A stretch of DNA of 64,000 bases, taken from assembly GCA_965226375.1 (NCBI GenBank), contig CBDDCX010000005.1:224001-288000 (forward strand), in the 5' to 3' direction. This DNA comes from Longimicrobiales bacterium. Its GTDB lineage: Bacteria > Gemmatimonadota > Gemmatimonadetes > Longimicrobiales > Gaopeijiaceae. Of this stretch, positions 39,001 to 42,000 are shown one piece after another. Position numbers: made by a program. Position 1 is the first letter of the stretch; each line of letters starts with the position of its first letter.

Positions 39001-42000
39001 GGTCGCACACCGGGCCGATCAGATCCTCGGAGGGGAGGGGGGCCGGGTACACCCGAACGACCACGTGAACTTCGGCCAGTCCTCCAACGACGTTATCCCC
39101 TCGGCCATTCATATCTCGGCTCGGGTTGCGATCGAGCGAGAGCTCATCCCCGCGCTCATGCATCTGAGGGACGCCCTCGCGGTCAAGGCCGAGGCCTTCG
39201 ATCACGTCCTCAAGTCGGGACGTACCCACCTGATGGACGCCACGCCTATCCGGCTCGGGCAGCAGTTCGGGGGCTACGCGCACCAGCTCACGAAGGGTAT
39301 CGAGCGCGTGCGTGCCGCCTCGGCGGGGCTCGGTGAGCTGGCTTTGGGCGGGACCGCAGTGGGGACTGGAATAAACACCCATCCGGACTTCGCGTCGAAG
39401 ACCATCGCACGTGTGGCCGAGGACCTGGGGTTGGAGTTTCGTGAAGCGGACAACCACTTCGAGGCTCAGGCCGCCAAAGACACGGTGGTCGATGCGGCCG
39501 GTACGCTGAACACGATCGCGGTCAGCTTTTTCAAGATCGCCGATGATCTACGGTGGCTGGCCAGTGGCCCGACCTCGGGAATCTCGGAGATCCGTATCCC
39601 CGCGATCCAGCCGGGAAGCTCCATCATGCCCGGCAAGGTGAACCCGGTCATGTCCGAGGCCATGATGATGGTGGCCGCCCGGGTGATGGGGAACCACACG
39701 ACCGTGACTATAGCCGGCCAGCGGGGCAACTTCGAGCTCAATGTGATGATGCCGGTCATGGCCCACGCACTGCTGGAGTCGGTGACCCTCCTGGCGAACA
39801 TGGCCACCACTTTCGCAGACCGATGCGTGGCGGGTATCGAGGTGAACGAAGAGAGGACCCGGGAGCTTCTCGAGAAGAACCCGTCCATCGCCACGGCGCT
39901 CAATCCCTACATCGGGTATGATAAGGCCGCGGAGGTCGCCAAAGAGGCGGCGCGCGAAGGGATTTCGGTGCGCGAAGTCGTGGAGAGACGGGAGCTGATC
40001 GCGCCCGAGCAGGTGGACGAGGCACTCGACGTACGGAAAATGACAGAGCCCGGGCTCCCCGAAGGGTAGGCCCGAGCCCTGGTCGCCCGACGTGCCGCGC
40101 TCCGTACCGGCTTCCTTCGCCCTTGCCTCGAGGGAGTCAGCGGCGCGATGACGCAGTCGACACGCCGGGCTTATCAGCCCGCTAGCTGATCAGGCGCTGT
40201 CCAGTTTGAGTTGAAGCTCCGTGCGCCGGAACTCCTTGTTCTTCATCGGGACCGGCACTCCACCATGAGGCAGGATTCGAGTCACCGAACCGTCCAGGTA
40301 GAGCGGGTACGCCCAAGCGCTTCCGAACCGCACCACCTGGATCAACTCCGGCCGCTCCTGATTGCTTGGGGGGGACACTGCCTCGGTGATTCGACGCCAA
40401 ACCCGATCGACGAGCCCCATGCGCTCGGTCACGGAGCCGGCCCACATCGCTAGTTGGAGCAGTTTCCGATCCGCCTCGCTCATCGACCGGATCACCCTGC
40501 GGTGCCCAGGAAAACTGTGCGAGAGCAGAAACGCCAGTGCTTCCGCCTCGGGTGCGGGGTCTACGGTGATCTCATGGTTCCCGGGCATCCGTACTCGGCA
40601 ACGGTCTGAAACGTCCAACCAACCATCTGCATGTATGCGCGTTCTCATTTGTTTGCCTCAATCAGAGCGGTCGTTCGTGCCCGTTCGGAGGGGCATTAAT
40701 GGAAGAGTCGTGCCGTGAAAGTGGGGAGGAGTAGGTGGGGTGTGGAAAACACGCTTAAGTGTTTATGAGATAGTCTGTTACGTCCTGTGGGAGCCCCTCC
40801 CTCGATGCGGGTATGGGGGGGGAGTGATAGGCATTTTTTAGTCAGAATCGGCAAGAAGTACGCATAGAAGCCTGGTTCGTGGAGGCCTCCTCAGATCTTT
40901 CCGCCCACGAACCGCGCGGGGGCCTCAACGCGCCCGTACTTCTTCAACAGCCTTCTAGACAGGGAGCCGGGCCCCGGCCTATATTCGATATCGGCGTGCT
41001 GGGGGGCTCGTTTATTGAGCCAACACCCGTGAAGCCGGGACTGACTCTTTCGGACTACGTCATGCCCTGAGAAGGGAAGGCGAAACTCGGAAGGAGGTCA
41101 CCCAACAGTGTCCCTGGGCTTCAATAATTCCCCTCTGGTGCGCTTAGAGAGGCCGAAATCCTTTGGGTTCCGGCCTCTCTCGTCGTATGAGGACGGATGC
41201 CGTCCAACGGCGGTGGCGATGCGTGACTCTCTACATCTCTCCTCGGACTTGCCTAGACGCCAGAACTGCGGGTAGCCTAGACGTTGTCGTCGTGAATGAG
41301 GCGAAGCCTTCCCCTCCAACGAGATCAGAGTTCGTGAGCGGAAAACTGCAGAGAGCGATCGAAGAGCGCCTTGCCCTCGGTGCCCTCGAATACGAGGTGC
41401 CTAAGTCGACCGAGGGCTGGAAGTACATGCTCGGGGGCATAACCGCCTTCTTGATCGGGGTCATCGTCGTCACGGGCCTGTACCTGGCCCAGTTCTACAA
41501 TCCCACTCCCCAGGGGGCCCACGACAGTGTGCTCTACATCATCACCCGTGCTCCGTTGGGCGATTGGGTTCGCAGCTTACATTTCCTGGCGTCCGGCGCC
41601 CTCGTGGTGACGGTGACCGCTCATCTGGCTTACGTCTTTTGGAGAAGGTCCTACAAGCGGCCTCGTGAGATGACGTGGTGGGCCGGTGTGATCATGGCCG
41701 CCTTGATCTTCCTGCTAGTGATCACTGGGACCACCCTTCGGTACGATCAAGAAGGTTTCGAGGCGCTGCTTCACTTCGTCGCAGGAGGCAACCTCACGGG
41801 GGCCTTCGGGGCGTTCTTCACCGACGACTTTACACCGAGCACCTCGCTTCTGTCTCGGATTTTCAGCCTTCACACGAGCCTTCTGCCCTTGCTGCTCGGG
41901 TTGCTGATCGGGCTGCACTTCTGGCTCATTCGCCACCTCGGGATTCATGCCGACTCGTCGCAGACAGGAGTCTTTCGGGTTCATGCCACACGTTTGGCCG

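Follow-up and report, generated by a model that had tools for sequence, protein, structure and literature searches.

Homology points to a divergent 6S RNA with a shortened closing stem in a Longimicrobiales bacterium

The RNA locus situated between a fumarase gene (38672–40069) on one side and a cytochrome b-like open reading frame on the other, in a window of Longimicrobiales DNA (the whole stretch analysed, 64,000 nt in length), raises the question of whether it encodes 6S RNA, a small RNA widespread in bacteria that mimics an open promoter and thereby holds RNA polymerase. An initial annotation had drawn this identity from shape, copy number and synteny. It is now supported by a chain of homology, by motifs found in register and by a zapA–6S–rny gene context, so that it rests on homology and not on shape alone; the RNA can almost certainly be taken as the 6S RNA of this genome. 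No open reading frame of at least 80 amino acids overlaps the locus, the parts of which are the following:

40956–40985, plus strand: sigma70-type promoter (−35 TAGACA, 18-nt spacer, −10 TATATT)
approximately 40992–40993, plus strand: putative +1 site, deduced from the promoter
40993–41145, plus strand: body of the 6S RNA, about 153 nt, a rod with a central bubble (from the full-length RF00013 alignment, model R1, covariation and short RNA-library contigs)
40993–41007, plus strand: 5' strand of the closing stem, short, pairing with about 41130–41144; two-sided change at 11 of 11 pairs
41012–41021, plus strand: 5' strand of helix P2, ending in the canonical UGAGCC and pairing with 41117–41127
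41022–41036, plus strand: 5' strand of the central bubble, 15 nt (14–17 nt in 82 of 82 homologues)
41037–41102, plus strand: apical stem, with the conserved GCCC..GGGAA hairpin and the CACC motif
41103–41116, plus strand: 3' strand of the central bubble, from the structure
41147–41179, plus strand: terminator-like hairpin, GC-rich, −21.9 kcal/mol, with a weak U-tract

The RNA is a stand-alone gene with its own promoter and terminator, the U-tract being weak in the window genome. The promoter has 10 of 12 matches, one such site being found against 0.4 expected in shuffles, and a match of at least 8 of 12 lies directly upstream of 47 of 82 homologues, compared with 2.9 in shuffles. The hairpin behind the body has a strong stem and a poor U-tract of four T in eight, and it was not called by the terminator scan of the window locus; among the homologues, a 3' hairpin is present in 73 of 82, and at least four T follow the hairpin in 56 of 82 (14 in shuffles). 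Of the two signals originally described, the promoter stands as such, whereas the terminator is a hairpin with a poor U-tract that the scan tool leaves uncalled; the proposed span of the gene, 40989–41159, needs correction, since its end cuts through this hairpin. The paired body measures 143–159 nt (median 149) among the homologues, and the window copy is about 187 nt long with the terminator included; 6S RNA is given as 160–200 nt in length (PMC8414754), and the body here is shorter. A search of sequencing runs with the locus stretch gave no RNA run containing more than 0.18 of its words. Assembled contigs were checked for four of 15 RNA runs, from four studies, and in all four, contigs of relatives with a length of 151–272 nt were found over 40991–41161; two X8 contigs, of 168 and 170 nt, cover little more than the RNA itself. 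These contigs are a weak hint of expression, because the runs were chosen with this same stretch and the contigs show no level, strand or ends.

A BLAST search with the RNA gave matches in 40 of 201 genomes of the phylum. From the 30 loci returned, 24 were aligned, near-duplicates and one locus without a real match being left out, and a model, R1, was built from these 24 homologues, all of which belong to the window's class; BLAST matches lying off the R1 positions (L028 and those of G043, G050, G052 and G056) were not used as homologues. In the 24 homologues a rod of 41 pairs with a central bubble has 90.3% of its cells paired and two-sided change at 25 pairs. In a set of 82 sequences, 81 of them outside the R1 training set and with a mean identity of 53%, 92.3% of the cells are paired and two-sided change occurs at 36 of 41 pairs, this alignment having been fitted to R1 and hence leaning towards the model. 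Not one of 500 shuffles reached the pairing and covariation values of either set. The closing stem, the central bubble and the apical stem are thus backed by covariation, and the rod with compensatory change described in the initial annotation is confirmed. Helix P2 consists of 10 pairs, of which six show two-sided change among the 82 sequences, with 95.8% of cells paired. The 3' strand of the bubble corresponds to a −10-like element in E. coli 6S RNA, according to the available text of a published account (PMC8876501). The folding z of −4.1 reported previously is obtained only for 40989–41185, with the terminator hairpin included; the value is −1.8 for 40989–41159 and −2.6 to −2.8 for the body alone. 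The homologues have a median z of −2.9, with −2 or lower in 62 of 82, and the minus strand of the locus folds worse (z −1.2).

The Rfam 6S model RF00013 has 187 positions and a gathering cut-off of 46.4 bits, which is an operational and not a biological criterion. Searched over the whole window genome at E ≤ 10, the model gave no match, as had been stated, but when run on the local stretch it aligns from end to end with 40993–41145 at 15.7 bits (E 2.6), far below the cut-off, and in this alignment the UGAGCC, GCCC..GGGAA, CACC and GG.UUCA blocks are all in register. Across the phylum, 15 of 150 genomes have an RF00013 match at E ≤ 1 and six have one above the cut-off; the latter comprise none of the 131 genomes in the window's class and six of the 19 in other classes, all from families f11 and f12. 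The RNA thus stays below the Rfam cut-off throughout the class, but is not invisible to Rfam throughout the phylum as had been proposed.

In 12 of 12 genomes matched by both models the R1 positions coincide with the RF00013 stretch. Furthermore, R1 scores nine of nine RF00013 loci tested from other classes (E 1e-5 to 8e-15), including all six above the cut-off, and three f11 genomes missed by the filtered R1 search were matched with the filters off. A search with the core pattern matched at least 118 stretches; among the 80 matches listed, 76 carry Gemmatimonadota titles, and three of the other four listed are 6S genes, from two Bacillaceae and one Nitrospirae genome, which score 103–112 bits with RF00013 and 48–57 bits with R1. 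In a 3-kb stretch of E. coli DNA the best R1 match is ssrS, with a weak score (10.9 bits, E 0.034). It follows from these matches to accepted 6S genes that the core is the canonical 6S core: the UGAGCC motif is common to the window RNA, the RF00013 consensus and E. coli ssrS, and the TGAGCC..GGCTT core once regarded as distinctive is the same one. The chain of homology is independent of three unpublished genomes, namely G097, which contributed one of the 24 training sequences and, at 34 bits, scores higher with RF00013 than any other member of the class, and G057 and G202, which are counted in the R1 genome, 82-sequence and f3 copy tallies. Weak matches to other Rfam families (CC2171, ArcZ, GHRLOS, rpfG and sX11) lie far under their cut-offs or on terminators. 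A Gemmatimonadota-type 6S RNA (L160:183-349, R1 72 bits) was also met on a 2-kb contig titled Acidimicrobiales, which is probably mis-binned.

By computation, the RNA has its own promoter, a 3' hairpin, the 6S rod fold, 6S motifs in register and homology to 6S genes scoring above the cut-off. We consider with high confidence that the locus is best explained overall as the single ssrS (6S RNA) gene of the window genome, encoding a presumed polymerase-binding mimic of the open promoter. Its spread agrees with this and with the phylum-wide occurrence claimed at first: R1 matched 139 of 150 genomes of the phylum, with one match in 136, and 128 of 131 in the window's class, 11 of the 150 being missed, so that one or two copies are present in nearly every genome of the lineage, as expected of 6S RNA. 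The description as single-copy holds for the 136 genomes with one R1 match, but not for family f3, where 22 of 41 genomes carry more than one copy (two or three). Speaking against the identification are the low direct RF00013 score of the window copy, a body shorter than the published range and the 11 genomes without an R1 match.

According to the same published account in its available text (PMC8876501), 6S RNA binds the housekeeping holoenzyme and serves as template for a short pRNA, whose start lies at U44 in E. coli and at C40 in B. subtilis. The window's class has a 5' closing stem shorter by about 9 nt than that of E. coli and of the other classes. Between the −10 box and the pRNA start, the median distance is 42 nt in the class (promoter match in 58 of 68) and 51.5 nt in other classes (promoter match in 8 of 14), and the RF00013 alignment of the window copy contains gaps of 11–12 nt on both sides of the closing stem. 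In other classes the closing stem runs straight into the U-tract, whereas in the window's class it is followed by a separate hairpin. The low RF00013 score in the class is probably due to the shorter closing stem. An annotation gap is thereby filled, as all 131 sampled genomes of the class would appear to lack 6S RNA in pipelines that apply the Rfam cut-off; the recovery of 128 of them by the lineage-specific model R1 indicates that such absences can be failures of the model.

The gene neighbourhood differs within the phylum. The gene zapA is found directly upstream in 15 of 105 loci, comprising all 14 from families f10–f12 and that of G105 from the window's class, and rny directly downstream in 14 of 105; the zapA–6S–rny context occurs in 14 of 14 loci of the other classes. 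Same-strand genes downstream are PTPS in 64 of 105 loci and folE in 67 of 105. As judged from this distribution of neighbours, without a rooted tree, the 6S gene appears to have moved from the zapA–rny site to the head of a PTPS–folE operon in the window's class. The locus of G105 (L107, G105:C46:6920-7086), the only one in the class with pheT–zapA upstream, has ymdB directly after it with no rny between, and may keep the older gene order. In the zapA–rny gap of the window genome no R1 match was obtained (best 5.2 bits), hence no remnant or second 6S gene was found there. The 6S gene of G031, placed downstream of zapA in the initial annotation, was not recovered in that position: locus L029 has PTPS downstream and no ZapA match, though the genome labels may differ. 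The neighbours in the window are:

38672–40069, plus strand: class II fumarase, the upstream neighbour, likewise upstream in 11 other loci of the window's family
59990–60959, plus strand: folE and a gene of the PTPS family, which in the class usually lie next downstream but are about 18.8 kb off in the window

PTPS and folE adjoin the 6S gene in most relatives. In the window the stretch between them (41163–59806) encodes a cytochrome b-like protein, a GGDEF-PilZ protein, a beta-propeller/Omp85 protein, several peptidases, a MatE protein, a hydrolase and an SDR; a search of this 18.8-kb stretch for signs of an island found no repeats of at least 12 nt and an unchanged GC content, one 11-nt inverted match being taken as chance. 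Within it, on the minus strand, an open reading frame of 1276 amino acids (47432–51262) joins an M28/PA/transferrin-receptor-like peptidase to an M14 carboxypeptidase, either as a fusion or as a merged pair. On the other side, the gap from the fumarase gene to the promoter (40070–40950) is about 900 bp long and holds a minus-strand open reading frame of 152 amino acids (40190–40648) without a Pfam match; among the 11 other loci preceded by fumarase, 10 have a gap of at most 400 bp.

The frequent position ahead of pterin genes on the same strand, in 64 (PTPS) and 67 (folE) of the 105 loci, would also suit a cis-acting leader or riboswitch for pterin, folate or queuosine genes in which two alternative helices form the switch. 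No second promoter stands out between the RNA and the pterin genes, with matches in 2 of 76 loci against 2.8 by chance, so that read-through from the 6S promoter is possible, and the two folds discussed below are nearly equal in energy, with a median difference of 0.8 kcal/mol. However, both folds lie inside the closing stem, the terminator of the window copy folds separately, and the same RNA precedes rny in 14 loci and elsewhere ymdB, the cytochrome b gene of the window genome or tRNA-Met. Such varied downstream genes, the independent terminator, the lack of any Rfam riboswitch family or aptamer match (preQ1, THF or similar) over the RNA in the loci scanned and the homology to 6S RNA make a riboswitch very improbable.

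Read as a polymerase-binding 6S RNA, and by analogy with E. coli and B. subtilis, the molecule would be bound by RNA polymerase with the housekeeping sigma factor as a mimic of the open promoter, and, starting at C41024 and proceeding towards its 5' end, the polymerase would transcribe it into a short pRNA that begins with GTP. C41024 is the third base after UGAGCC, its equivalent in E. coli being position 44, as checked on ssrS, and the corresponding position is a pyrimidine in 81 of 82 homologues and in 74 of 74 of a second set, from which L160 (with its non-Gemmatimonadota title) and the cut-off loci L164 and L209 were left out. Synthesis of the pRNA would open helix P2 and free its 3' strand, which would then pair with the far side of the 5' bubble, and the resulting central-bubble-collapse helix would release the polymerase. 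B. subtilis 6S-1 and A. aeolicus 6S RNA are described as refolding through a helix of this kind in the available text of PMC8876501.

In the window copy, 41031–41036 can pair with 41117–41122 to form this alternative helix. The helix has a duplex energy of −10.4 kcal/mol with its own partner, compared with −7.8 for swapped and −5.9 for shuffled partners, and reaches p ≤ 0.05 in 55 of 82 homologues and in 57 of 74 of the second set; taken alone, that of the window copy has p 0.21, which is not significant. Fold predictions that keep the pRNA stretch open give at least four pairs of the alternative helix in 65 of 82. For the commonest register there are 70 distinct sequences: four of the first five positions are paired in every one of them, and positions 7–11 in 202 of 350 cells (167 when partners are shuffled). 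As kin are not independent, these register counts are overstated. In most members the helix starts at the base right behind the pRNA start. Among four control 6S RNAs (E. coli, two Bacillaceae and one Nitrospirae) it is found in none. In the ViennaRNA prediction for the free window copy, the collapsed form is more stable by 3.2 kcal/mol and the P2 core has a probability of 0.01; as to the homologues, no more than 47 of 82 have a P2 core probability above 0.5, and in 51 of 82 the free RNA already averages at least four pairs of the alternative helix. The collapsed window copy, the p value of its helix and the count for P2 speak against a simple open-bubble picture.

These values also touch on the reading, less probable still than a riboswitch, of an RNA derived from 6S but without its usual action, resting collapsed or binding core polymerase like Ms1: the collapsed state as the predicted lowest-energy fold of the window copy and many homologues, the shortened closing stem and the collapse helix in none of the four controls would all fit it, but helix P2 keeps its compensatory changes, in 61 of 82 the fold containing P2 is no more than 2 kcal/mol above the minimum, the pRNA-start position is conserved, the zapA–rny gap of the window genome gave no second copy with R1, and, in the available text of PMC8876501, the same helix occurs in B. 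subtilis 6S-1 and A. aeolicus 6S RNA and truncated 6S arms still cycle in vitro.

The window RNA resembles E. coli ssrS and the RF00013 consensus in its rod with central bubble, its four motif blocks in register and its own promoter, and ssrS also in the pyrimidine at the position of U44. The upstream zapA is shared with E. coli in part of the phylum only, and a folate-pathway gene lies downstream in both, though a different one (fau in E. coli, PTPS–folE here). In contrast, the body is 183 nt long in E. coli and about 150 nt here, the pRNA start in the window's class is about 9 nt nearer the 5' end and a separate terminator hairpin is present, and E. coli 6S RNA is without the bubble-collapse pairing. 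Closer in this respect are B. subtilis 6S-1 and A. aeolicus 6S RNA, for which the available text of PMC8876501 describes possible pairing of the distal 5' bubble with the 3' strand released from P2 and a pRNA that starts with G opposite C, as it would here; the likeness is one between a predicted helix and that published description. The Ms1 RNA of Actinobacteria is likewise rod-like and polymerase-binding, from a lineage in which standard 6S searches fail, according to the available text of PMC9130861 and PMC11077062. Unlike Ms1, the RNA here is homologous to RF00013 members, and no locus scanned gave an Rfam Ms1 match.

As claimed before, no paper on 6S RNA in Gemmatimonadota was found among those listed by the literature searches, while Wehner et al. 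2014 may list a Gemmatimonas candidate; one paper on missed divergent 6S RNAs has no mention of Gemmatimonadota in its main text. This is a real 6S RNA, ordinary in kind and with a modest structural twist, and the earlier framing (whole phylum, distinctive core, single copy) was overstated. The view of 6S function is unchanged, and a specialist would expect the phylum to have a 6S RNA.

The paralogues of family f3 recall the two of B. subtilis, 6S-1 and 6S-2. In a tree with midpoint rooting only, the pterin-linked f3 copies form one side of a supported branch (95/92). The 24 extra copies mostly have promoter-like hexamers upstream, as judged by inspection, and, unlike the B. subtilis pair, 10 of the 24 abut a tRNA-Met(CAT) gene, ending at most about 9 nt before it with no terminator between. 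The tRNA is presumably the initiator, going by the usual features of initiator tRNAs. A plasmid search with the RNA gave no match. The copies concerned are:

L111, L112, L282 and L292–L298, in f3 genomes G106, G218, G233, G219, G212, G222, G225, G237 and G234: extra 6S copies abutting tRNA-Met

Taken together, a more speculative picture can be drawn, which we regard as doubtful. The 6S RNA of the window's class might be a shortened, near-balanced two-state switch, perhaps resting partly collapsed and releasing the polymerase after unusually short pRNAs; as head of the pterin operon, its promoter or read-through might tie pterin and folate synthesis to 6S expression, paralleling ssrS–fau in proteobacteria; and in one family the second 6S RNA might be co-transcribed with the apparent initiator tRNA and receive its 3' end from 5' processing of the tRNA. 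If true, co-transcription of 6S and tRNA-Met would make the supply of a transcription brake and that of a component of translation initiation go together. The RNA family offers natural variants of the release mechanism, with a strong collapse helix in at least three registers and a short closing stem, and f3 in addition offers a set of paralogues joined to tRNA-Met. Outside f3, a second 6S copy is present in family f5 (L072, G050:C41:21423-21592), where it sits on a long branch outside the pterin-linked f3 copies and lies upstream of a MacB/FtsX gene.
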